This document shows positions 1 through 44,586 of a DNA stretch of 44,586 nucleotides, piece after piece. Source of the stretch: a virus; IMG/VR virus record IMGVR_UViG_3300045689_000016; one strand, 5' to 3'. The position numbers were made by a program, and so were the translations under genes. The notes under the pieces are model-generated. The model did not search any database, was not told the DNA's origin, and saw only the letters and a list, made by a program, of their open reading frames with translations. Every line of letters begins with the position of its first letter. Position 1 is the first letter of the stretch.

Positions 1-127
1 TTAAAAGTTCTTGTGGTTCAATAGCCCCCAAGTGCTTATAAACGTTTAGCACTATCTTTTTAGGACGAACTCCATCAAATTCGACTTCTAATTGTGCATC
101 AGCATTATCAAATCCGTTTAATACAAA
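1..127. repeat. Terminal overlap copy A. It is identical to 44460..44586 and marks circular closure of the contig.
   Basis: Direct string comparison of both window ends. Identity runs exactly to both window edges. The repeat lies inside a tail gene, far from the packaging genes. Confidence 0.95.
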
Positions 128-19464: not shown

Positions 19465-19944
19465 TCAAAATAGAGTAATTTGATTATCTTTAGTCCTGTT
19501 TTCATCGTAATACTCTATTTCAGATATCTTTTTTTGTCGTTCATTGCTGCGTGCTTCGTATTCATCAACAAATTTCAAGGTGTTTCTAACATCAGAATGT
19601 TTCTTTCTGATATAAGAAGGGCTATAACCTGTTTCTTCTGCTATTTCTTCTAAAGTCATATTATCAACGTATTTCAATTTTACAATTTGATTTTCAACAC
19701 CGGAAAAGCTGTCTACTAAAATCAACAGCTCTTCTTTTTGTGCTTTTAATCGGTCCAACTCTTCTAACATTTTTTCAATATTATTTTCAAGGGATGATGA
19801 TCTTGAGTTTTTTTCAATTTTTATTTCTGATAAATCTCCGTAAATCCACCTGTTTAATTCAAGCTTACTTTTATTGAGATTCCATTTTATGTATAAAATT
19901 TGTTCTTCTAATTCTTGATAATCCTTTAACCATTGAAATCTCAA
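19465..19944 (-). CDS. Putative late-gene transcriptional activator (sigma-70 region-4-like HTH; DUF1492 / RinA / ArpU class)
   Basis: 159 aa. The C-terminal segment VKLKYVDNMTLEEIAEETGYSPSYIRKKHSDVRNTL is a region-4-type HTH. Confidence 0.6.
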   Translation of the reverse strand: MRFQWLKDYQELEEQILYIKWNLNKSKLELNRWIYGDLSEIKIEKNSRSSSLENNIEKMLEELDRLKAQKEELLILVDSFSGVENQIVKLKYVDNMTLEEIAEETGYSPSYIRKKHSDVRNTLKFVDEYEARSNERQKKISEIEYYDENRTKDNQITLF

Positions 19945-22734: not shown

Positions 22735-23535
22735 CTAAAAACTAAAATCACTTCGTTTATCCTTTGTTGCATCAGTAAATTTAATAATATGTCCTTCTAC
22801 TCCCCTAAATAATCGGCTGATGATTTTCGGGTTATAAATCTTTCTCATTTCATCTGAATTCAAGTTAGTAGTTACAATAGTTCTTGTTCTAGCATTTAAA
22901 ACGTTGAATAAGAAACGCTGATTGTACTCACTTGATTCAGTTCCCACTTTTTGAAATGAGGACTCACTCCCAAAATCATCTATTACTAAAAGCTCCGTTT
23001 TTGTCAGTAGCTCAATCATGTTGTGTTCAGTGTATTTACTATCTGGATTATTAAAACTATCTTTAACCAATCTCAATACATCGCTAATCGAAACAAACAA
23101 GCAGCTTCCTTCTGGATCTAAATTTTCATTTACTACTTTGAGAATCGACATCGCTAAGTGAGATTTACCGACACCAGGAACACCAGTTAATAAAGTATTG
23201 AAATGTCTATCTCTATCTATGTAATCAGCAGCTATTAATTTAGCTTCTCTAAGTGCATGTGACGTTTCTTCGTTGTCAGCAGTGTAATTATCAAAAGAAG
23301 CATTCCAAAGTGTTATATCCCCTAAAATCGAATCTTTCTCTAACGTCTGGATGGTTCTTCTTAAATGTTGATTCTTGCTGATAGTGTTTAACATTTCTTT
23401 TTCTTTAAGTTTCAACTTCTCACGATGGCATTCAGTACAAAAAGGTTTTCTATCCCCTAGCTTAGAAAGTTTTGTCTGATGTTTTTCACAAATTTCATCT
23501 GTCTGTTCTACACTTCTTAATAAAGGAAAATCCAT
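22735..23535 (-). CDS. DnaC / IstB-like AAA+ helicase loader
   Basis: Walker A is GVPGVGKSHL and Walker B is LLVIDDFG. The N-terminus has a Cys-rich zinc-finger-like segment. Confidence 0.85.
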   Translation of the reverse strand: MDFPLLRSVEQTDEICEKHQTKLSKLGDRKPFCTECHREKLKLKEKEMLNTISKNQHLRRTIQTLEKDSILGDITLWNASFDNYTADNEETSHALREAKLIAADYIDRDRHFNTLLTGVPGVGKSHLAMSILKVVNENLDPEGSCLFVSISDVLRLVKDSFNNPDSKYTEHNMIELLTKTELLVIDDFGSESSFQKVGTESSEYNQRFLFNVLNARTRTIVTTNLNSDEMRKIYNPKIISRLFRGVEGHIIKFTDATKDKRSDFSF

Positions 23536-24335
23536 TAAAAGTTCACCTCCGAGTTCGTTTTCATTTTTTGTTGTGGTTGATTATTTGATTTATTCGGCTG
23601 TTGATACTTACTAGCATTTTGTTTTTCAAACTTTTTATTTAAAGCTTCAACATCATCTAACGTTTTAACATTATTCTTTTCCCATGTTCTCAAAATACTT
23701 TCAGTGTACTTAAAGCTGTATGCATTCCCCTCTGCTGATTCTTTAAGTGCAGCTATAACTAATTCTGGACTAAGATCTTTACTCCAATAGTCCAAACTCT
23801 CAATCATAAATGAGTTAGCCATCCCGAAAACTTGCTCATAAGCTTGAACAACATTTTGTGGTTCCTCTACTACAACAACTTTGTTAACATTGTTATCTTT
23901 GTTAACATTGTTATTATTGTTCCGTTGCTGTTCACTTGCTGTTCCGTTGCTGTTCCGTTGCTGTTCGGGTAGTTCTTTTCTGTATCGCTCAAACCCTTGG
24001 TATTCCTCGTAATTAACCACTGTAAATAGTGTTCCGTAATCGGTAGTCTTGATTTGAATTCGATTTTCTTTCACGAGTTGGTCAATTTTGTTTTTTATGG
24101 TGTGCAACGAGTATTGTTTTACTGCTCTTTTTTCTGTATAAGCTAAATCTTTTTGTAGATTTCTATATGATCTAAGATACTGACCACGACCAACATGAAC
24201 ATCTGCAACTGTGACTCCTTCTTTGGCAAAGACCGCATTGCCATAAATATAGAAAAAGATTCTAAACTTCACTACATCAGTCCAAATTGGATTTTCAAAT
24301 ATTTCTCTACTTGTCTGGAATGCTCCTTTACTCAT
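23535..24335 (-). CDS. Replisome organizer / replication initiator with a C-terminal DnaD (DnaB_2) domain
   Basis: FMIESLDYWSKDLSPELVIAALKESAEGNAYSFKYTESILRTWEKNNVKTLDDV is DnaD-like. There are internal DNA iterons. Confidence 0.8.
   Translation of the reverse strand: MSKGAFQTSREIFENPIWTDVVKFRIFFYIYGNAVFAKEGVTVADVHVGRGQYLRSYRNLQKDLAYTEKRAVKQYSLHTIKNKIDQLVKENRIQIKTTDYGTLFTVVNYEEYQGFERYRKELPEQQRNSNGTASEQQRNNNNNVNKDNNVNKVVVVEEPQNVVQAYEQVFGMANSFMIESLDYWSKDLSPELVIAALKESAEGNAYSFKYTESILRTWEKNNVKTLDDVEALNKKFEKQNASKYQQPNKSNNQPQQKMKTNSEVNF
23881..23966. repeat. Iteron cluster inside the organizer gene; candidate phage origin of replication
   Basis: TTGTTAACATTGTTA occurs twice (23881, 23899). GTTCCGTTGCTGTTC occurs three times (23919, 23941, 23952). 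The cluster encodes a low-complexity Q/N linker. Confidence 0.55.
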
Positions 24336-34460: not shown

Positions 34461-35594
34461 ATGGCAGAACCAATTAAACAGAAAAGCGGTAAGTATAGAT
34501 ACCGAATTAGAATTAAACACCCTATTACAAATGTTTGGATAGAGCGTTCAACAACTCAAAAATCAAAAAAAGCATGTATTGAATGGGAACGGGAAATCAG
34601 ATCAGATATTTTATGTGGTATGAATCCTGATAGTGTTAAAATAATCCCCTTCTTTGATTTATGGTTTGAGACTTACAAAAGAAGTACAGTTGGACCAGAC
34701 CATAAAAATAAGATTAATAGCACCAGAAATACGATTCTTGAATTTTTCGGTGAGGATCAGCTGATAAACAACTTAACTAAAATTAAGTATCAGCAATGGA
34801 TAAACTATTTAGGGTTTGATAAGAGACAAGCGAAATCAACAGTTTTAGATAAACACAAGATTTTTAAATCTGTCATTATCGAAGCAGTTGAAACAGGATA
34901 TTTAAGATACAATCCCACACGCAATGTCACTATTGTAGGTAGAGATACCACTGGAGAAGTAAAAAAGGCTCTCACGCTATCTGAATGGAAAAAACTACTA
35001 AATGTATTGCTTGCAACTGAAGAAGATTCAGCAAGCAAAATGATATGTTTAACGATGATGTACACAGGGATGAGATTTCAAGAAGCTACTGGTCTCCTCT
35101 ACTCTGATGTTAATTTTAAACAAGATTCTATTAGTATAACTAAAGCTTTTGACTATAAAAGAGAAAAAGAATCAACGAGGACAAAAACCCCTGGTTCAGT
35201 CAGAGTAATTGATATGCCTATTGGTTTGAGAGATATTTTGAAAGAATATATGTTTTCAAACAAAAATAGTAAAATTATCACACTAGATAAATCTAAGAGT
35301 AATGATTTTTTATTTACAAATGAGCTGGGAGTTCCAATCACAAATGCTGCTTGCAATAAATTTTTAACCAAGAAATGTAAAGAAGCAGAAATAGATAGAA
35401 TTACGACTCATGCTTTCAGAAGGTCTAAAACTGACTTACTAGTATTAGCTGGTAATGACATGATTTATACTCAAAAACAATTAGGACATGTTGACGCTTC
35501 TACTACTTTAAAATATTATAGTCAATTGAATGAAGATATTAGAGATAAGAACAAAAAAATACAAGAAGAATTTTTAAAAGAGAATCAAATATGA
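34461..35594 (+). CDS. int: Tyrosine recombinase / phage integrase
   Basis: 377 aa. The C-terminal catalytic region has MRFQEA..., HAFRRS..., LGHVDASTTLKYY (R, H-x-x-R and Y motifs). Confidence 0.9.
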   Translation: MAEPIKQKSGKYRYRIRIKHPITNVWIERSTTQKSKKACIEWEREIRSDILCGMNPDSVKIIPFFDLWFETYKRSTVGPDHKNKINSTRNTILEFFGEDQLINNLTKIKYQQWINYLGFDKRQAKSTVLDKHKIFKSVIIEAVETGYLRYNPTRNVTIVGRDTTGEVKKALTLSEWKKLLNVLLATEEDSASKMICLTMMYTGMRFQEATGLLYSDVNFKQDSISITKAFDYKREKESTRTKTPGSVRVIDMPIGLRDILKEYMFSNKNSKIITLDKSKSNDFLFTNELGVPITNAACNKFLTKKCKEAEIDRITTHAFRRSKTDLLVLAGNDMIYTQKQLGHVDASTTLKYYSQLNEDIRDKNKKIQEEFLKENQI

Positions 35595-36421: not shown

Positions 36422-36826
36422 TTAAGCATTTTCTTCATTTTGCTCTTTTAACATTTCCGTTAAGTTATAAACATTTGGAAATCCAGAAGCTGCTTCACAT
36501 AATTGAGAAATAATTAAACTTGCCTTACCGAGACCTGGCTTTAAAAACTCATTTCGTTCATTTTTTATCATTTCTTCAAAAGATAATCCTTTTTTGTTTA
36601 ACATTTCAATTTCAGTTATTAACGATAATTGGAATCTAAATTCTTCAACAGGAATGTCTATTTCTATTTTTACTGAAACAATGTTTTTTTCATCATATTC
36701 TGTGGAGTCATCCGCATACCCAGCAACAATACTAGCCTCTGAAATATTATCATCATCCAACAAACTCATCTGTGAGTAGTATATTTTATTACTTTTCAAG
36801 TCAAACATTGGTTCTAATTCAGACAT
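36422..36826 (-). CDS. Third gene of the cassette: acidic 134-aa protein, tentatively a SecB-like chaperone
   Basis: RBS AAAGAGGTG; 13-nt overlap with the upstream gene. The order of sequence elements and the acidic tail resemble SecB, but this comparison was made by eye from memory. Confidence 0.35.
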   Translation of the reverse strand: MSELEPMFDLKSNKIYYSQMSLLDDDNISEASIVAGYADDSTEYDEKNIVSVKIEIDIPVEEFRFQLSLITEIEMLNKKGLSFEEMIKNERNEFLKPGLGKASLIISQLCEAASGFPNVYNLTEMLKEQNEENA

Positions 36827-37344
36827 ATTTGCACCTCTTTTTTTGTTTTAAAATTTCTATTTTTAAATCTTTTATTAAATACTTCAGGAAGTGCTTTTAT
36901 ATCATCAGTTATACTAAAAACCATTTGTCTTTCATTTTTTGTTAAAAATATTGAAATTTTTACATCTTTATTTTCTTTCTCCACTTCACTAAATGTAAAT
37001 GACGCAACATTTCCTTTTAAATTTTGTGTTTCTAAAAAAGGTCTTCTGTGCTTGTATAAATCAAATTTAAAAATACTAGTATCAGTGTCTATTTTTCTTA
37101 TGATATTCTTCATGTTAGCAATAATATCGTAATACTGATCTATATTTTTATTCATTTCTCCAAATTCAAAATCTAAATATTCATTTACACTAAGATTAAG
37201 ATATCTAGATATCTCCTCAACACTTAAATCATTTATAAGGCGTAATTCTAAAATATCCGTAGACAATTCATTTTGTTTAGAAAATTGTTGTTCATATAAA
37301 TCGGGTTGATATTCCTTTAGTAGATTTTCAAAATTTGTATTCAT
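36814..37344 (-). CDS. Second gene of the cassette: XRE-type HTH protein with a long C-terminal extension (candidate antitoxin)
   Basis: The HTH is DLSVEEISRYLNLSVNEYLDFEFGE. The ATG at 37344 lies 9 nt after GGAG; alternative starts are at 37353 and 37359. It overlaps the upstream gene. Confidence 0.55.
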   Translation of the reverse strand: MNTNFENLLKEYQPDLYEQQFSKQNELSTDILELRLINDLSVEEISRYLNLSVNEYLDFEFGEMNKNIDQYYDIIANMKNIIRKIDTDTSIFKFDLYKHRRPFLETQNLKGNVASFTFSEVEKENKDVKISIFLTKNERQMVFSITDDIKALPEVFNKRFKNRNFKTKKEVQICLN

Positions 37345-37840
37345 TGTTGTCATCTCCAATCCACTTCAATCGTTCATTATAAGAAGAATGCACGATGCTA
37401 TATATACTATCTGTTTTTATTGCTGTGTTATCTGTTTGATCAGAATTATTATTATTATTTATTTTGGTAAAGCCAAATGTAAAGACAATACTATCTATAT
37501 CTACTTTATAGATAAAAAATAACAATCTTTTATGTTCATATTGACCATCAATTCTAACTTCGTAACTAAATTTATGATGATTTAGTTTCTTAATAATTTC
37601 TGCTCTTTGAAGTTCACCTAAAGAATTTTTTAAACTTAATTCTATAGGAAATTTTGCAGAAGTTCCATCTTTAAATATCAAATTACCATTTTTTGTAGAA
37701 TATCGCAAATTCAATTGCTTTAAAATTTGCATAAAATTTTTTATAAAAATCTCATCGTTATTTTTCAAATGAAATAAGACATAGTCTTTAGCAATTTCAA
37801 AATCTGAACAATCATTATAAATAATTGAATTAAATTCCAT
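37328..37840 (-). CDS. First gene of the cassette: 170-aa protein whose C-terminal half resembles Gp49 / HigB / RelE-type toxins (tentative)
   Basis: YEVRIDGQYEHKRLLFFIYKVDIDSIVFTFGFTK follows the ElRi..yRilyf..ivllhgFxKK pattern. The toxin-first order matches higBA. Confidence 0.4.
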   Translation of the reverse strand: MEFNSIIYNDCSDFEIAKDYVLFHLKNNDEIFIKNFMQILKQLNLRYSTKNGNLIFKDGTSAKFPIELSLKNSLGELQRAEIIKKLNHHKFSYEVRIDGQYEHKRLLFFIYKVDIDSIVFTFGFTKINNNNNSDQTDNTAIKTDSIYSIVHSSYNERLKWIGDDNNEYKF

Positions 37841-37854
37841 CTTTCCTCACCTTT

Positions 37855-37883
37855 ATTATATGCTAATAGCTATAATAGTACAA
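37855..37883 (-). promoter_or_regulatory. Promoter of the three-gene cassette (TTGTAC-17-TATAAT) with an overlapping imperfect inverted repeat
   Basis: The -10 is the reverse complement of ATTATA at 37855..37860. The -35 is the reverse complement of GTACAA at 37878..37883. The repeat TTATTATATGCTA / TAGCTATAATAG spans the spacer. Confidence 0.55.
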
Positions 37884-37942
37884 TAAGAAACGTTTTATGT
37901 CACTAGTTTCTTTATATTTTTTTGATAAGGATAAATAAAGCA

Positions 37943-37970
37943 ACCCCCAACTGATTCTTCAGTCGGGGGT
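37943..37970 (-). terminator. Intrinsic terminator ending the lysis operon
   Basis: The minus-strand RNA forms ACCCCCGACUGA-AGAA-UCAGUUGGGGGU, then UGCUUUAUUUAU. The single non-Watson-Crick pair is G-U on the minus strand and A-C on the plus strand. Confidence 0.75.
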
Positions 37971-38015
37971 TATTTGTTCCTTCATTTAAAACAGGGTTAC
38001 TATTAATATACAATA

Positions 38016-38723
38016 TTATTGAGGTTTAACATAACTTTTATTTAAAGTTACGTATGTATCACCTAGACCTGCGATTAAAGCATGTGTTGCACCATTAGGC
38101 ATCTTAACGATTTCTCTAACTGCAATTTTAGAACCTTTTTTAAAGAACCAAGTTGTGTCTTCTTTCGAAAAATCTCGATTGTAAGTTTTTAGATCCTGTA
38201 ATGCAACAAAATAATTACCAGATTGATAGTGATTATCTTCTGCTGGTTTAGTGCCCTTATCTTCTTGAATAATTTTGATTGGATCTAACCATGTACCGTC
38301 ATTTTTAAAAGCACTTTGTTGTGCAGCTAACCATTCTTTTTTGGTAATCCCTAAATGCATATGATTAGTCGCTCTATTTCCTATGGCTTGTCCCATTTTT
38401 ACATTTTGACCAACAGAAACCTTAATATCTGATGTACTAGTTCCAAATTCTTGATAAACTATATAATAACCATCAGTACCTCTAGTTACAATAACAGTAC
38501 CTAGTGCTTCATATCCTCTTGGAGCCCATCCAGCATAAATTACAGTTCCATCGTGTATAGCCAAAATCCTTTTATCTGGATATTTAGCTGAACCAAAATC
38601 AAATCCATCATGGAAGTAATCGCCGTATCCTGTTCTATCAAATTTTGTAAATCCAAATTGTTGTCCTTCTTCATAATAACCTAAGTAAGCTTTTACGTTA
38701 GGCCATCCCCAATATTTACCCAT
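38016..38723 (-). CDS. M23-family peptidoglycan endopeptidase with a C-terminal wall-binding domain shared with 38741..39424
   Basis: Contains HxxxD (HDGFD) and HxH (NHMHLG). No signal peptide. The C-terminal roughly 70 aa are paralogous to the C-terminus of the neighbouring lysozyme. Confidence 0.8.
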   Translation of the reverse strand: MGKYWGWPNVKAYLGYYEEGQQFGFTKFDRTGYGDYFHDGFDFGSAKYPDKRILAIHDGTVIYAGWAPRGYEALGTVIVTRGTDGYYIVYQEFGTSTSDIKVSVGQNVKMGQAIGNRATNHMHLGITKKEWLAAQQSAFKNDGTWLDPIKIIQEDKGTKPAEDNHYQSGNYFVALQDLKTYNRDFSKEDTTWFFKKGSKIAVREIVKMPNGATHALIAGLGDTYVTLNKSYVKPQ

Positions 38724-38740
38724 AATTACACTCTCCTTTT

Positions 38741-39424
38741 TTATTGTGGTTTAACATAATCTTTGTGCATTGTAACGTAAGTATCTAATAAGCCGCCTAA
38801 TTGTGCGTGACAAGCTCCTGTAGAAGCAAAAACTCGTTCTCTAACTGCGAATTTACTTCCTGCTTTAATGAACCAAGTATTATCATTTTTATCAAAACTC
38901 TTATTTCTAGGTTGTAAATCTTGTAACGCTACAAAATAACTTCCTGATTGGTAATAACTTGCATTAGGTGTTGGTCCTGTACTTGCTTTCATAAATAATG
39001 CCGCCTCCTCGTTTCTTCTATTTACTAAACCTGGTAAAGTAACTCCTCCAGCTTTATTATAAAGTTTCATTTCATCAGCAGCTTTTTGCCATTGTCTAGA
39101 ATTAATGTAAGTAAGTAGTGTTGTACCACTCAAAATATACGCTCCAAGATTAAATTGGAAACTAGCAAGTGCATCAAACTGATTTTGATTAAGCTGAGTA
39201 GTTACATAATTGTATGATCCATAAACATGCGATTTGATATCTTCTTTTAGAAACTGATCAGCTTGAGCTTGAGTAATTTTCATACCGGCATAAACGCCCT
39301 TAGTATGACCATAACCAATAGTCCAAACTCCAACAGAATCTTGGTAAGCTGTTAATCTAACACCCTCCCATTTTTTAATTAGGTTAATACCATTCTGCGA
39401 AATTGTTAAATTCTCATTTGCCAT
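38741..39424 (-). CDS. GH24 (T4-lysozyme-like) muramidase with the same C-terminal wall-binding domain
   Basis: IKKWEGVRLTAYQDSVGVWTIGYGHT is the GH24 catalytic signature. No signal peptide. The C-terminus YYQSGSYFVALQDLQPRNKSF...YVTMHKDYVKPQ parallels that of the M23 protein. Confidence 0.85.
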   Translation of the reverse strand: MANENLTISQNGINLIKKWEGVRLTAYQDSVGVWTIGYGHTKGVYAGMKITQAQADQFLKEDIKSHVYGSYNYVTTQLNQNQFDALASFQFNLGAYILSGTTLLTYINSRQWQKAADEMKLYNKAGGVTLPGLVNRRNEEAALFMKASTGPTPNASYYQSGSYFVALQDLQPRNKSFDKNDNTWFIKAGSKFAVRERVFASTGACHAQLGGLLDTYVTMHKDYVKPQ

Positions 39425-39511
39425 ATTATTTCTCCTTTATTAAAATATTTAAGATTATCGATATCTTTATCTTTATACTACTGTTAATCACAGTTCCAGT
39501 TAGCTCAAACT

Positions 39512-39889
39512 TCAGTTCCAGCCTAACCTCATCGCTATTTCTCGTAAAAGTTCATTGTCTCTTCTTTTTATCGTTGATTCACTCAAAGCTACTTCACAGG
39601 AAACTAGATTATTTTCTTTAGTAGGGTAACCATACAAATATTTTGATGTAAAAATATCTTTAACTTCACTTGTTGAATCCTCTAACACACTATCCACCAC
39701 ATCTAAAAATATTTTATTAAAAATCATTTGATTCATTGTTAAAGCATAGTTATTTTCTTCTGATAAAGGATACTCAGTAAAATTAATTCTATTATTCAGA
39801 ACTATCTCTGATATTTGCTTCAATGATTTACTTATTTCTTTATAGTTCCAAAGCAATGCTCTGATGTGATTTCTTGTAGTTTTATTCAT
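39512..39889 (-). CDS. RinA / ArpU-class phage transcriptional regulator, located inside the lysis region
   Basis: 125 aa. The N-terminus is IRALLWNYKEISKSL and the C-terminus is LSESTIKRRDNELLREIAMRLGW, which is the RinA-family layout. Confidence 0.55.
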   Translation of the reverse strand: MNKTTRNHIRALLWNYKEISKSLKQISEIVLNNRINFTEYPLSEENNYALTMNQMIFNKIFLDVVDSVLEDSTSEVKDIFTSKYLYGYPTKENNLVSCEVALSESTIKRRDNELLREIAMRLGWN

Positions 39890-39922
39890 CTATAACGCCC
39901 TTTCAAAAAAATATTCTAGTCA

Positions 39923-40930
39923 CTAACCTTTTTCTACTTTTCCATCTTTTAACATTCTTATTTGGATTGCTTCAATTTGTTTACCTTCAGTACCAGCTAC
40001 TCCGCCTTCTTCTTTCCAAGCTCCCCAACCTACATCAGCTGAATGAACTCTGTATTGAATGCGACGACCAGTTTTCAGCAAATTACCATTACTCGCAAAA
40101 CAAATTTGGTCAATCGCTTGAGATTTGCCTGTTGTTCCTGTTATCCCTTTAGGAACATTTACCCATTTACCATTTAGAATTCTGTAACTAGAACGAATTG
40201 AATCTGCTTTCTTATTCCACAATACTTCCACCGCTTCTAATTTTAGTGCTTTACCAGTTGTTCCAGCCGTAGCCTCAGTTCCTACAAATTTTTGCCAACC
40301 GATATTAGATACGTGACCTCGGTACCACAGTCCCATTTTTGCTCCTGCAGGTGTTTGGTTTTCGTTAGTAAATTTTTCACCAGTGATTGACTCAATAAAA
40401 CCTTTAGCTAATTGATCTAGTTCCTTATTGATAATAGTCATATCTCTTGAACTAGTAATAAACCCAATTTCAGTTAAACGATAGTTCAGACCTCTTTGGG
40501 CAGCTACGTTAAGATTTAAAAGATTACTTCGATAACTAATACCGTTAGTTTTAGAAACCCCGCCCCATAATCCAACAGTACGTTTGATTAAATTCGCCAT
40601 ATCCAAATCAATATTATCAGCCTTAAAACTTGAGCTGACTATTACATGTCCACCAGTAGCTGAAGAACCAGCTGCATCTTCATGATACTCACTTATAGTC
40701 GTGTAATAACTTGGACTAATAGAATACATTCCCCATCCATTTGCTGTTTCTTGAAACATATCTCTGTTACCCGTTGTATCAAAAAAGACGAATGAGTCTT
40801 TCGACTTATCCGCCCATTTCTTCATATAAGGATGTAGTTTCTTTCTATTAAAATCTCGCTCATTAGCTCCATTACCAACTGCACCAGGATCGCCTGCTCC
40901 ATGACCATAAATAATTAAGTGATTTGCCAT
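39923..40930 (-). CDS. Endolysin: N-acetylmuramoyl-L-alanine amidase (Amidase_3-like) with two C-terminal ChW-type repeats
   Basis: LIIYGHGAGDPGAVGNGANE and LTEIGFITS are amidase_3-like motifs. The repeats are NIGWQKFVGTEATAGTTGKALKLEAVEV and DVGWGAWKEEGGVAGTEGKQIEAIQI. Confidence 0.8.
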   Translation of the reverse strand: MANHLIIYGHGAGDPGAVGNGANERDFNRKKLHPYMKKWADKSKDSFVFFDTTGNRDMFQETANGWGMYSISPSYYTTISEYHEDAAGSSATGGHVIVSSSFKADNIDLDMANLIKRTVGLWGGVSKTNGISYRSNLLNLNVAAQRGLNYRLTEIGFITSSRDMTIINKELDQLAKGFIESITGEKFTNENQTPAGAKMGLWYRGHVSNIGWQKFVGTEATAGTTGKALKLEAVEVLWNKKADSIRSSYRILNGKWVNVPKGITGTTGKSQAIDQICFASNGNLLKTGRRIQYRVHSADVGWGAWKEEGGVAGTEGKQIEAIQIRMLKDGKVEKG

Positions 40931-40933
40931 AAA

Positions 40934-41269
40934 TTACTCACCACTTTCTTTATCTTCGTGTTGTGTATCTTGATAACCTAACCCTTCATCGATTAGATTA
41001 TTAGCTTTTCTTTCGTTGTTTAATGCTACACCATTTGATTTCAAATCGTAGAATCCACCGGCTGCCATACCAGCTAAACCACCAGCCCATGCGTAAACAA
41101 TTACTTCTGTTGGTAAAAAGCTTAATGCGTATCCTGCACCAATAACTACACCAATAACAATGTTTAAGAATGGTAACCACTTATTATTGACTGGTGTCGT
41201 TTTAATCATTTTAGTTGCTCCAAAAACAATTGCTCCGATAATTGATACTGCTGCTAAAATTTCTTCCAT
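40934..41269 (-). CDS. Holin
   Basis: 111 aa with three hydrophobic segments and a charged C-terminal tail. It lies immediately upstream of the endolysin gene. Confidence 0.65.
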   Translation of the reverse strand: MEEILAAVSIIGAIVFGATKMIKTTPVNNKWLPFLNIVIGVVIGAGYALSFLPTEVIVYAWAGGLAGMAAGGFYDLKSNGVALNNERKANNLIDEGLGYQDTQHEDKESGE

Positions 41270-41270
41270 T

Positions 41271-41639
41271 TTAATTTCCTTCTTTCATTTTTATATTTGG
41301 TAAAGCCTTTACTTTGTTGTAAAGCGTTTCTCCTGTGCCATTACCACCTAAATTTTTATAAGCATTAAATAGATAGTCTAGATCATCTAAATCTGCTATC
41401 GATATAAACCCTTCTTGCAAATGACTAGCACATTGTACATAAATCTTATTGTGTAACATTGCTAAAATTGCTTTTTCTAAATTGCTTAATCTCGTATCAA
41501 CCGAATCTTTATCTTCTTTCATTTTATTTAGCTTCATTTTAAAAAAACCATAAAAACTAAATCCTGTTACTGCAATCAATGCAGCATTGGCTCTTAAAAA
41601 ATGTTCAAGCCAATATGTAGTCTTGTCTATCCACTCCAC
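41271..41639 (-). CDS. Membrane-anchored lysis-cassette protein (possible holin partner)
   Basis: 122 aa with a single N-terminal TM segment (ALIAVTGFSFYGFF). It abuts the holin gene. Confidence 0.45.
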   Translation of the reverse strand: MEWIDKTTYWLEHFLRANAALIAVTGFSFYGFFKMKLNKMKEDKDSVDTRLSNLEKAILAMLHNKIYVQCASHLQEGFISIADLDDLDYLFNAYKNLGGNGTGETLYNKVKALPNIKMKEGN

Positions 41640-42282: not shown

Positions 42283-44586
42283 CTATTTTATTTGATAAGT
42301 CATACTACTAATTTCCACATAATTTGAAGCTGTCACACCAATGATTGCTGCAAATCTACCGAAAGTTGTCATTGATAAACGACATCCGTTACCGTTGTCA
42401 GCAGCACCATACCTCATGATAGTAGTTGCTGGGTAGATATTTTCTGGAATTTGAATAAACCATTGTTCTGAACCAGCATTCATTATCCCGGAATTTTTCT
42501 TAAATTGCCCACGGAAAACAATCTCCTTTGTACCATCTAGATTATAAATAATTCTATATTGAGGTGGGTTATCTTCGGCTATTGAATACCCTGTTCTCAA
42601 TGGGAGTGTTATCCATGGTGTTTCTGTGAGGTTTGAAGCAAGTAACTGGCCAACAAAGCCATCATTAGCATTTGATAAAAGAATACCGTCTGGTGTAATC
42701 GCAAAAGCTTTTCTTACAGATGTTCCATCAGGTTGGTAAATAGTACTTGAGATAGCATCTGATGAATATTTCGCAACAAATCTATATGTTTTATCAATAA
42801 AACCAGATATGGTTACTTCTCCATTTTCTATAGTCATTTGTCCACTTGCTTTACTTTGATTGTTATAGATTAATGGAACATCAGTAAAGTAGTTAACAAA
42901 CTTACCTCCAGTAAAAGAACCTCCTGTCACATCTCCTAAAACTGCTGAGATAGCTGCTAAATTATCAGCTTTAATATTAACTGCATAAAAAATAAACAAC
43001 TCCCAAGAAGAACCGTTCCATCGTTTTAGTTGATTAGGGTTCTGACTGGTATCTTGCCACAACATACCGACATATCGTGAAGTTGGTTGCGTGTTCGTTA
43101 CTGTTATTCCTGTTGGGTCTCCTTTAGGTCCAGTATTACCTGTTGCACCTTTATCTCCCGTCAATCCTTTATCTCCTTTAGGTCCCTGACTACCAGTTGC
43201 TCCAGTGCTACCTGTTTCACCCTTAGGACCTTGCGGACCAATAGAACCATTAACCCCGTTTTGACCCTGTTTATTTTTAACAACAATAACTTGTTTATCA
43301 ATCTGAACACCTTTGTAAGTCGCTCTATAAATTGCCATTGCAGTATCTATTGTAATACTGGTTATCGTATAACGTCCGCTAGCATTGATTGAGCTAGACA
43401 TTCCTGTTTCAGATACTTTTGTATAAGTGACACCACTAGCTAATTTACTTTGTCCCTCAAATACCACAAAATCTCCATAAGCTTTGGAGTAATCTGACAC
43501 TACTCCTGTTGGTGTAGCTGATAGGATGATAGACTCGTTTGTTAATAAACCACTGATAACTTCCGTTGCATCTTTTCCGGGAGAACCGTCTTTACCTGGT
43601 ATTCCTTGAGCTCCATTAATTCCATCTTTTCCTTTTTCTCCAGGTACTCCTTGTTCACCTTTTTGTCCATCTTTGCCTGGCAAACCATTTTCTCCATCTT
43701 TACCATCAATCGATACATAGCTGATACTATAGGCATGATTGATAGTCCCTTTTGACATAGTTGTACTTGTTCGAGTCCACAAGTACTTACCTTCAGGAAC
43801 AACGGGTATTTCAACAGACCAATTAATCGGCACAGTGACATTATCATTACCAACTGAATAGGTAATTTCAGTCGATACCACATAATCAATATCTTTCTTA
43901 ATATCAGCTATGATTTTGTCTAGTTCACTCATGTTACTCTCTAAATCAATAAAGTTACTGAATTTATATTCGTTTCTAGATGAATCATCATCATTAAATT
44001 TGTATTCAGTTACTCTTGCTGAAATCATGATAGGTGGTTTCATATCAAGTGCGACAATTTGAATATTATCTCCTATGCCGCAAGTGATATAACCTTTAGC
44101 TTCATAATCAATAATCGCATGGTCAATTTTCTTCAATCTAATTAACGCTTCTCTCCACAACGCATCCTGTGTTTTAGCTTGACTAGAATAGTCACGAACG
44201 ATGTAACCATCAAACTCTCCATTTGCTTTATTAGGTAGGTCTACAAAGAAATTCTGATGACCTTTAACACTGAATATTTCAATCCTATCTTTTGGCGAGT
44301 AGTAAAGGATATTACCATCACCATCTTTTTCTTCGTAGTATTTACCTTTTAGAGTGAGAGCCACTTCGTTTGTTTCTTCACCTTTTGGACGTAAAGCTGT
44401 ACCTAATTCAGATATGCTACCTTTACGTTCTAACTCTTCTAAATTATCAATTTCAGATGTTAAAAGTTCTTGTGGTTCAATAGCCCCCAAGTGCTTATAA
44501 ACGTTTAGCACTATCTTTTTAGGACGAACTCCATCAAATTCGACTTCTAATTGTGCATCAGCATTATCAAATCCGTTTAATACAAA
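42283..44586 (-). CDS. C-terminal 725 codons, plus the duplicated overlap, of the tail-tip / receptor-binding protein with two collagen-like Gly-X-Y blocks
   Basis: The ORF is open to the window end and continues in phase at 1..571. The Gly-X-Y runs and a C-terminal globular region are typical of receptor-binding fibres. Confidence 0.85.
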   Translation of the reverse strand, partial: FVLNGFDNADAQLEVEFDGVRPKKIVLNVYKHLGAIEPQELLTSEIDNLEELERKGSISELGTALRPKGEETNEVALTLKGKYYEEKDGDGNILYYSPKDRIEIFSVKGHQNFFVDLPNKANGEFDGYIVRDYSSQAKTQDALWREALIRLKKIDHAIIDYEAKGYITCGIGDNIQIVALDMKPPIMISARVTEYKFNDDDSSRNEYKFSNFIDLESNMSELDKIIADIKKDIDYVVSTEITYSVGNDNVTVPINWSVEIPVVPEGKYLWTRTSTTMSKGTINHAYSISYVSIDGKDGENGLPGKDGQKGEQGVPGEKGKDGINGAQGIPGKDGSPGKDATEVISGLLTNESIILSATPTGVVSDYSKAYGDFVVFEGQSKLASGVTYTKVSETGMSSSINASGRYTITSITIDTAMAIYRATYKGVQIDKQVIVVKNKQGQNGVNGSIGPQGPKGETGSTGATGSQGPKGDKGLTGDKGATGNTGPKGDPTGITVTNTQPTSRYVGMLWQDTSQNPNQLKRWNGSSWELFIFYAVNIKADNLAAISAVLGDVTGGSFTGGKFVNYFTDVPLIYNNQSKASGQMTIENGEVTISGFIDKTYRFVAKYSSDAISSTIYQPDGTSVRKAFAITPDGILLSNANDGFVGQLLASNLTETPWITLPLRTGYSIAEDNPPQYRIIYNLDGTKEIVFRGQFKKNSGIMNAGSEQWFIQIPENIYPATTIMRYGAADNGNGCRLSMTTFGRFAAIIGVTASNYVEISSMTYQIK
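43111..43266 (-). repeat. Collagen-like Gly-X-Y block 2 (about 17 triplets)
   Basis: GQNGVNGSIGPQGPKGETGSTGATGSQGPKGDKGLTGDKGATGNTGPKGDPTG. Confidence 0.9.
43570..43704 (-). repeat. Collagen-like Gly-X-Y block 1 (15 triplets)
   Basis: GKDGENGLPGKDGQKGEQGVPGEKGKDGINGAQGIPGKDGSPGKD. Confidence 0.9.
44460..44586. repeat. Terminal overlap copy B (identical to 1..127)
   Basis: Direct string comparison. Confidence 0.95.

Follow-up and report, generated by a model that had tools for sequence, protein, structure and literature searches.

An accessory-lysin cassette with a putative sigma-like regulator in the lysis block of a temperate Vagococcus fluvialis phage

Endolysins are usually viewed as one gene per phage, with the timing of lysis set by the holin alone. 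The phage DNA analysed here (IMG/VR virus record IMGVR_UViG_3300045689_000016; 44,586 nucleotides (nt); the whole stretch is called the window) carries a lysis block in which the holin and a complete endolysin are followed by a small regulator-like gene and by two further peptidoglycan hydrolase genes, encoding a GH24 muramidase and an M23 metallopeptidase. This raises the question of what the additional lysins are for and why a regulator gene stands in front of them. The answer that we consider fairly probable is that a holin and endolysin pair is followed by a facultative, mobile accessory-lysin cassette, whose regulator would drive the GH24 and M23 genes through the leader that separates it from them. 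The features are listed below by their positions in the window, with protein lengths in amino acids (aa).

40934..41269, minus strand: holin, 111 aa, first gene of the lysis block (Pfam Phage_holin_5_1, 26.8 bits; phrog_1299, E=1.5e-16)
39923..40930, minus strand: primary endolysin, 335 aa, Amidase_3 (51.1 bits) with ChW in two stretches (68.1 bits; phrog_489, E=4e-46)
39512..39889, minus strand: sigma region-4-like regulator, 125 aa, assigned by PHROG matches and fold to the Ltr superfamily and the family of phiEf11 ORF27
39425..39521, minus strand: leader from the regulator to the GH24 gene, defined by sequence and by alignment with homologous leaders; putative function
38741..39424, minus strand: accessory lysin 1, GH24 muramidase, 227 aa (Pfam Phage_lysozyme, 146.6 bits)
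38016..38723, minus strand: accessory lysin 2, M23 metallopeptidase, 235 aa (Pfam Peptidase_M23, 46.2 bits)
37941..37972, minus strand: intrinsic terminator closing the lysis block (14-bp stem with 7 GC pairs, then the T-run CTTTATTTAT)
19465..19944, minus strand: canonical late regulator, 159 aa, outside the cassette and given for context (phrog_36, E=7.6e-20; Pfam Sigma70_r4, 25.1 bits)

Pfam matches for the holin, Amidase_3 with ChW, GH24 and M23 bear out the five open reading frames and their domains where the original prediction, made from the letters of the DNA, had placed them. The genes form a co-oriented block with a regulator-like gene between the hydrolases and one terminator at its end, as had also been described. 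Intergenic gaps in the order holin, amidase, regulator, GH24, M23 are 3, 33, 87 and 17 nt; no terminator-like site was found in the gaps between lysis-block genes, and 37941..37972 is the sole such site from the holin to the next cassette. The three hydrolases are indeed encoded separately and have no detectable signal peptide (maximal Kyte-Doolittle 15-residue mean <=0.6 over the first 40 windows). The N-terminus of the holin is strongly hydrophobic (15-residue mean 2.57).

The embedded regulator gene starts 33 nt past the endolysin stop codon. Its product matches phrog_36 (E=3.9e-6) and phrog_248 (E=5e-5), both families of transcription regulators, and relatives of the protein reach phrog_36 with E=6e-15. 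An AF2 model (pLDDT 83) is all-helical, and its top Foldseek matches are all to sigma factor region 4, the -35-binding region (3hug, prob 1.0; 3vfz, TMt 0.75-0.81), with weak E-values that are all >=0.08. The protein had been predicted to be of the RinA/ArpU class. The match to PHROG 36 and the predicted sigma region-4 fold agree with this, but at the level of the named families the assignment does not hold: the TIGR01636 RinA score of 23.2 bits lies under the cut-off of 31.9, ArpU (TIGR01637) gave no match at E<=0.1 and Pfam gave none at E<=0.01. The idea that a late regulator had moved here from the side of terS had to be given up. The canonical regulator persists in its usual neighbourhood upstream of the packaging genes (19465..19944) and belongs to the same PHROG 36; BLASTP detected no similarity between the two proteins. 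Because the canonical regulator is still in place, the embedded 125-aa protein is an extra, probably specialised member of the late-regulator superfamily and not a displaced one.

Is this regulator tied to the lysin genes behind it? Its family is small, with 6 representatives at 50% identity in a full HMMER scan of 1.84 billion proteins. A word-indexed search gave 3 regulator clusters, and most relatives came from DNA-pattern scans. The loci collected in this way are the window, at least six V. fluvialis prophages, 3 Logan contigs, 18 IMG/VR contigs, 15 metagenome contigs and one published phage. At every locus with a readable downstream gene, this gene encodes a signal-less peptidoglycan hydrolase that starts about 50-115 nt past the regulator stop codon; the same succession of regulator and hydrolase was seen in the loci L051-L053, L057-L074 and L079-L093. 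The type of hydrolase differs from locus to locus: GH24 then M23 in the window, a fusion of GH24 and M23 with at least 627 aa in L051, GH24 joined to a PSA/SH3 wall-binding domain in L052, Amidase_5 then GH24, Amidase_5 alone (304-456 aa), a GH24 protein of 375 aa, a CHAP protein of 388 aa, CHAP with five ChW repeats, and M23 with GH73 in Enterococcus phage phiEf11.

The genes upstream vary independently. Holins belong to families 5_1, 5_2 and others, and the endolysins are of the Amidase_3-ChW, Amidase_2-SH3_5 or GH25-LysM type or combine Amidase_2 or Amidase_5 with PG_binding. The regulator sits just after the primary endolysin in most loci, and one group (L068, L084) has no upstream endolysin and carries a FUSC_2-like membrane protein and a 700-nt gap instead. 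The cassette is also missing from some lysis modules: an Enterococcus faecium prophage has an Amidase_2 endolysin followed by a second lysin, an M23/GH24 fusion, with the regulator absent, and other Vagococcus phages have one Amidase_3 endolysin that carries an SH3b-like domain. Because the linkage is constant while the hydrolase and the upstream genes vary, and because the cassette is absent elsewhere, regulator, leader and accessory lysin or lysins appear to behave as a facultative mobile unit that moves between lysis modules.

The wide occurrence also corrects the original prediction, which had presented the arrangement as singular. It is found in V. fluvialis prophages and in IMG/VR, metagenome and Logan contigs, and the layout has been published for phiEf11, so that the singular framing fails. 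A widespread arrangement already characterised in relatives had been named as grounds for dismissing the proposal; the first part is what we found, and the second applies as far as phiEf11 ORF28, which has been purified and assayed.

The leader between regulator and GH24 gene contains several elements on the minus strand: a conserved GTTTGAGC box (39510..39503), the -10-like hexamer TATAAA (39477..39472), the imperfect palindrome AAGATATCGATAATCTT (39467..39451) and the ribosome-binding site AGGAG (39436..39432). Alignment with homologous leaders, which fall into a Vagococcus clade and a sister clade, revealed corresponding elements in both. A GTTTGA(C/G) box lies at or just past the regulator stop codon in both clades and is non-coding yet conserved in the Vagococcus clade. 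The -10-like hexamer is in register across the leaders (TATAAA, TAAAAT, TATAAT, TATACT, TATCCT or TAGACT) and is followed in both clades by a palindrome after 2-15 nt, 4-8 nt in most leaders. This palindrome has ATCGAT at its centre in the Vagococcus clade and reads GrACrTAyGTTC or GAAACATGTTTC in the other. Leaders of the sister clade additionally have a 5-bp inverted repeat around an invariant GACG, which is paired in 10/10 distinct sequences; two of its pairs are replaced by another complementary pair (CG to UA, AU to GC) and no one-sided change occurs, the two-sided changes going back to a small number of independent events. Leader conservation extends across regulators that are just 40-55% identical. 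Because the regulator family is strictly linked to the downstream lysin gene and the leader elements are conserved in position, an internal, regulator-dependent promoter in the leader is plausible.

A direct repeat in this region had been proposed as the binding site of the regulator. The exact repeat CTGGAACTG does occur twice on the minus strand at the predicted coordinates, 39491..39499 and 39513..39521; the second copy, however, overlies the last codons and the stop of the regulator gene and thus lies outside the 87-bp gap to which both had been assigned. In L051, GAATTAA occurs twice at the same aligned places. We did not accept the repeat as a significant signal, as it is within chance expectation and degraded in a close relative, and we treat it as a weak lead to a possible regulator site. 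The exact sequence occurs five times in the window (7109, 9488, 14566, 39491, 39513), and with one mismatch there are 14 matches against 6.3 expected, a number that no shuffle reached; the copies outside the lysis leader fall in structural and packaging genes.

Several observations weigh against regulator-driven expression from the leader. Pairs of 9-mers at most 30 nt apart occur at about 25 places in the window and at about 11 in shuffles, and in the 99%-identical relative L079 the two repeat copies read CTGGAATTG and CTGGAACAG, so that only a CTGGAA core is kept. In place of the elaborate palindrome and hairpin seen in the sister clade, the Vagococcus clade has only a different palindrome. 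No -35 element of the sigma-A type stands at the proper distance; the TTGAC-like box is 22-29 nt from the -10-like hexamer, and because of this spacer we rejected a sigma-A promoter made up of these two elements. The missing -35 fits a promoter that depends on an activator or on a sigma-like factor, without proving one. The position of the palindrome, at about +1, also suits an operator or a 5' hairpin better than an activator site. An intrinsic terminator or attenuator in the leader was rejected too: RNA folding gave a hairpin over the stop codon (z = -2.7) with no U-run behind it.

The gaps in front of the regulator and the GH24 gene are short (33 and 87 nt) and free of terminators, and for this reason plain read-through could express all genes of the block with no need for the regulator. 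In such a passive operon the GH24 and M23 genes would be the last genes of the late transcript, and the 125-aa protein would have no special tie to the lysins; it might serve as a second late activator of general scope or as a feedback factor, with the terS promoter or its own operon among the conceivable targets. Bona fide late activators share its PHROG, which would suit such a role, and the E. faecium prophage has its Amidase_2 gene and M23/GH24 fusion without any regulator. We nevertheless think this explanation unlikely. The regulator stays beside the downstream hydrolase even where the upstream endolysin is missing (L068, L084), the leader is conserved across strongly diverged regulators, and the phage already has a canonical late regulator.

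Both accessory lysins retain catalytic or zinc-site motifs, the M23 protein with one departure. The GH24 protein has its muramidase domain at residues 1-150 (Phage_lysozyme, PF00959, 146.6 bits against a gathering threshold of 22.3), and the motif WEGVRLTAYQDSVGVWT in its translation keeps the catalytic E-x8-D-x5-T triad. In the M23 protein the peptidase domain spans residues 1-155 (46.2 bits, gathering 28.7), and the zinc ligands are present in HxxxD (H38 and D42, in FHDGFD) and HxH (H121 and H123, in NHMHLG). A point against an enzymatic role is the glutamine (in YQEF) at the position of H260, one of the two catalytic histidines of LytM. The change is common to all close M23 homologues and to the best match in the Protein Data Bank, 5gt1_A (97 bits), and M23 domains of this type are also found fused to GH24 in the proteins P0023 and P0025.

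Might the M23 protein then be a non-enzymatic, LytM-type activator of the Amidase_3 endolysin, comparable to EnvC, NlpD and ActS for AmiA/B/C? The glutamine aligned with H260, weak NCBIfam matches to NlpD, ActS and EnvC and the nearby Amidase_3 gene speak for this role. Degenerate LytM factors, however, lose the zinc ligands, which are intact here; the YQEF subfamily is conserved, occurs fused to GH24 and has its own wall-binding domain; and other members of the regulator family are accompanied by an M23 gene without any Amidase_3. We therefore hold an activator role to be highly improbable and treat the protein as a putative endopeptidase.

Fusions of the two activities were found in both orders, M23 then GH24 (389 aa) in the E. 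faecium prophage L056 (7001..8170) and GH24 then M23 (at least 627 aa) in the metagenomic phage L051 (1900..3780). Because both orders occur, the M23 and GH24 activities are perhaps paired, which suggests that they work together. In genomes of Enterococcus and Vagococcus, 2-3 genes for signal-less hydrolases also lie side by side in clusters (GH24, CHAP, M23 and others; L002 6347..9089, L005 6388..9086, L006 6894..8702, L009 5725..7884, L010 7983..11492). The members of a given cluster share their C-terminal domain, and the neighbours of some clusters, judged from the starts of their products, seem to be housekeeping rather than phage genes. Lactococcus lactis prophages (L054 6284..7729; L055 334..1738) encode a 242-aa M23 homologue with a 70% identical catalytic domain directly after an Alt-like late activator (DUF722, phrog_2198) and before terS, a further example of an M23 gene paired with a late activator. 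In a Carnobacterium prophage (L008 6188..6639), the amidase endolysin and two additional GH24 genes are separated by genes, on the opposite strand, for two small glycine-zipper membrane proteins of 73 and 66 aa; the regulator is absent there.

The C-terminal domain predicted to be shared by the two accessory lysins was confirmed by BLASTP (45/72 identical aa, 63%, E=5e-28). It covers residues 156-227 of the GH24 protein (nt 38744..38959) and 164-235 of the M23 protein (nt 38019..38234). The domain search that had been proposed for it gave DUF5776 in Pfam, for the M23 copy only and below gathering (19.1 against 27 bits). An AlphaFold model (pLDDT 88) is a seven-stranded SH3-like barrel, for which Foldseek found as best match the polymer-binding SH3b-like domain of a capsule polymerase (8a0m/8a0c, prob 1.0, TMq 0.77), followed by the teichoic-acid-binding domain of Lactobacillus SlpA (8alu, TMq 0.65). 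The lysis block thus uses two different wall-binding modules, as predicted: ChW on the amidase and the SH3b-like domain on GH24 and M23.

The same domain, 73-86% identical, forms the C-terminus of proteins of 228-270 aa with Amidase_2, Amidase_3 or Amidase_5 N-terminal halves, which are therefore ordinary single endolysins. In two Vagococcus phage contexts an endolysin with this domain is the only lysin after the holin, and the cassette is absent. We take the shared domain, predicted to be SH3b-like, for the module with which Vagococcus phage endolysins normally bind wall polymers. One protein, P0041, has the same Amidase_3 catalytic domain as the endolysin at 39923..40930, but the SH3b-like YQSG domain replaces ChW, which is an evident instance of a wall-binding-domain swap between endolysins of Vagococcus phages.

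From these elements a sequence of events can be proposed for regulator-driven accessory lysis. Late transcription would read through the holin, amidase and regulator genes. The regulator would then bind just past its own stop codon and fire or boost a promoter in the 87-nt leader, with transcription running as far as the terminator (37941..37972) and GH24 and M23 produced in large amounts. Because none of the three enzymes has a secretion signal, they would wait in the cytoplasm for the holin and then, going by their domains and motifs, may cut three different peptidoglycan bonds, the SH3b-like domain presumably aiming GH24 and M23 at the wall. Lytic activity at this gene position has been demonstrated for phiEf11 ORF28 (M23+GH73) only. 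A role as virion-associated lysins is unlikely in view of the small size of the enzymes, their wall-binding domains and the position of their genes after the holin, and the phiEf11 virion proteome paper makes no mention of ORF26-28.

The window represents the complete genome of a temperate phage in circularly permuted form, with bases 1..127 repeated as bases 44460..44586. The phage is a temperate siphophage and its host species is V. fluvialis; the M23 protein shows 100% identity to P0001, an NCBI protein from this species. The integrase gene lies on the plus strand (34461..35594), the structural, replication and lysis genes on the minus strand. An identical lysis block is also found in V. 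fluvialis chromosomes, adjoining rpoN and the cggR-gap operon, and is unchanged in at least six prophage contexts whose downstream sequence differs; assembly GCA_017315875.1 is among those that carry it. A DNA search of 50,697 phage records revealed no close relative of 37800..41300.

A variable cargo position separates the lysis terminator from the attachment site; it is occupied in the window by three overlapping genes (36422..37840, minus strand) and in V. fluvialis prophages with the identical lysis block by genes for Fic, Abi_2, SocA_Panacea, an NTPase-like 499-aa protein, DUF4325 or DUF6941. Elsewhere in the window, an iteron-like array at 23880..23966, within the gene 23535..24335, consists of an 18-nt unit CTTTGTTAACATTGTTAT present twice and, after it, about four 11-nt units TGTTCCGTTGC; it is likely the replication origin.

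Three points are new. The regulator family appears to be dedicated to accessory lysins and to move with them, and it is followed by a conserved leader. Thirdly, the second activity is split into two genes with a host-typical SH3b-like domain, the primary amidase using ChW. Such a recurring add-on, in which the extra lysins bring a sigma-like regulator of their own, would give lysis control in Gram-positive phages an additional, transcriptional layer. Regulator and leader would together be a small, testable switch, and the survey points to many natural lysins (GH24, M23, CHAP, Amidase_5) with host-specific SH3b-like targeting domains.

Among known regulators, those of the Ltr superfamily of late activators, comprising ArpU, RinA and LtrA-C (Quiles-Puchalt et al. 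2013, PMC3753634), are the closest in kind. Ltr proteins bind 2-4 short direct repeats directly distal to their own gene and activate the next promoter, and the name ArpU goes back to a reported regulator of muramidase-2 in Enterococcus hirae (PMC3753634). Like them, the window regulator is a small phage protein with a predicted C-terminal sigma region-4-like domain and falls in PHROG 36; the direct repeat CTGGAACTG, a pair within chance expectation, begins at its stop codon, where Ltr sites lie. It differs in its position inside the lysis module instead of between the replication genes and terS, and in its presumed target, a lysin gene and not terS. It also remains below the RinA threshold and lacks an ArpU match, and a canonical Ltr-like gene is present elsewhere in the phage.

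Other phages, too, are known to have several lysin genes. In streptococcal phage C1, the lil gene lies between plyCB and plyCA of PlyC, and actinobacteriophages have split lysin A genes. Enterococcus phage PEF1 carries two endolysins, LysPEF1-1 and LysPEF1-2 (PMC11428236). The division of lytic activities among several genes, which the original prediction took for a peculiarity of the window, is therefore shared with PEF1 and with phiEf11. These systems resemble the window in having several lysin genes, sometimes with an unrelated gene in between; unlike in the window, no dedicated sigma-like regulator is known to accompany the extra lysin genes of PEF1, C1 or the actinobacteriophages.

A regulator between hydrolases is also found in Bac41 of Enterococcus faecalis plasmids (bacL1, bacL2, bacA, bacI), where two genes for hydrolase effectors are listed with that of the transcriptional activator BacL2 between them (bioRxiv 10.1101/2020.11.20.391417). 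Bac41 resides on plasmids, secretes its effectors and includes an immunity gene, whereas the window genes are phage late genes with no immunity-like gene in the block. A tblastn search of 72,556 plasmids gave no regulator homologue at E<=1; we rejected homology to BacL2 on these grounds, and because the regulator has no detectable plasmid homologue the resemblance is by analogy only.

The analogy brings up a further explanation, which is compatible with regulator-driven accessory lysis but which we consider quite unlikely: the lysins, set free together with the progeny, might act mainly after the burst and lyse neighbouring non-lysogenic Vagococcus cells from outside, in analogy to Bac41 with its lysin, positive regulator, lysin and immunity genes, and lysogens would be protected by lysogenic conversion. 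Purified ORF28 of phiEf11 is a potent lysin of E. faecalis from outside, down to 0.4 ug/mL (PMC10462781), and phiEf11 lysogens resist it; curing restores sensitivity and lysogenisation confers resistance (PMC12540744). The order of hydrolase and activator genes in Bac41, the host-typical wall-binding domain of both accessory enzymes and the signal-less hydrolase clusters with one common C-terminal domain in enterococcal chromosomes would also fit. On the other hand, the cassette contains no immunity-like gene and is located inside the late lysis block, 0/72,556 plasmids carry a regulator homologue, which makes BacL2 an analogue at best, and lysogen resistance is known from phiEf11, not from Vagococcus. 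The bolder form of the idea, a self-contained mobile weapon traded among phages of Enterococcaceae and their relatives, with its own sigma-like activator and immune lysogens, would make the cassette a phage counterpart of bacteriolysins like Bac41 and strikes us as doubtful. If true, with lysins that hit neighbours and lysogens immune as for phiEf11, lysogens would use the cassette to compete against non-lysogens.

The closest known counterpart of the accessory-lysin cassette is found in phiEf11, the only match in a tblastn search of the 50,697 phage records with the regulator. Its PHIEF11_0027, annotated as "putative phage autolysin regulator" (126 aa), is 46.8% identical to the window regulator over 99% of its length. 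In the literature searched, which did not include the primary phiEf11 genome and ORF28 papers, we found no functional study of the regulator. The gene order is the same, with holin PHIEF11_0025, endolysin 0026, regulator 0027 and a signal-less, M23-containing hydrolase 0028, and cargo and integrase come after the lysis module in phiEf11 as well. The phages differ in their enzymes and leaders. The primary endolysin of phiEf11 (ORF26) is of the GH25+LysM type, that of the window Amidase_3-ChW; ORF28 (0028) fuses M23 with Glucosaminidase (GH73) in 421 aa, whereas the window splits the second activity into GH24 and M23 proteins with a common SH3b-like domain, its YQEF-type M23 being only distantly related to that of phiEf11 (29% identical). 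The phiEf11 leader has a GGACATATGTTC palindrome and a CCATG-GACG-CATGG hairpin. ORF28 has already been used in a patient (PMC10462781), and by this comparison it gains a wider family.

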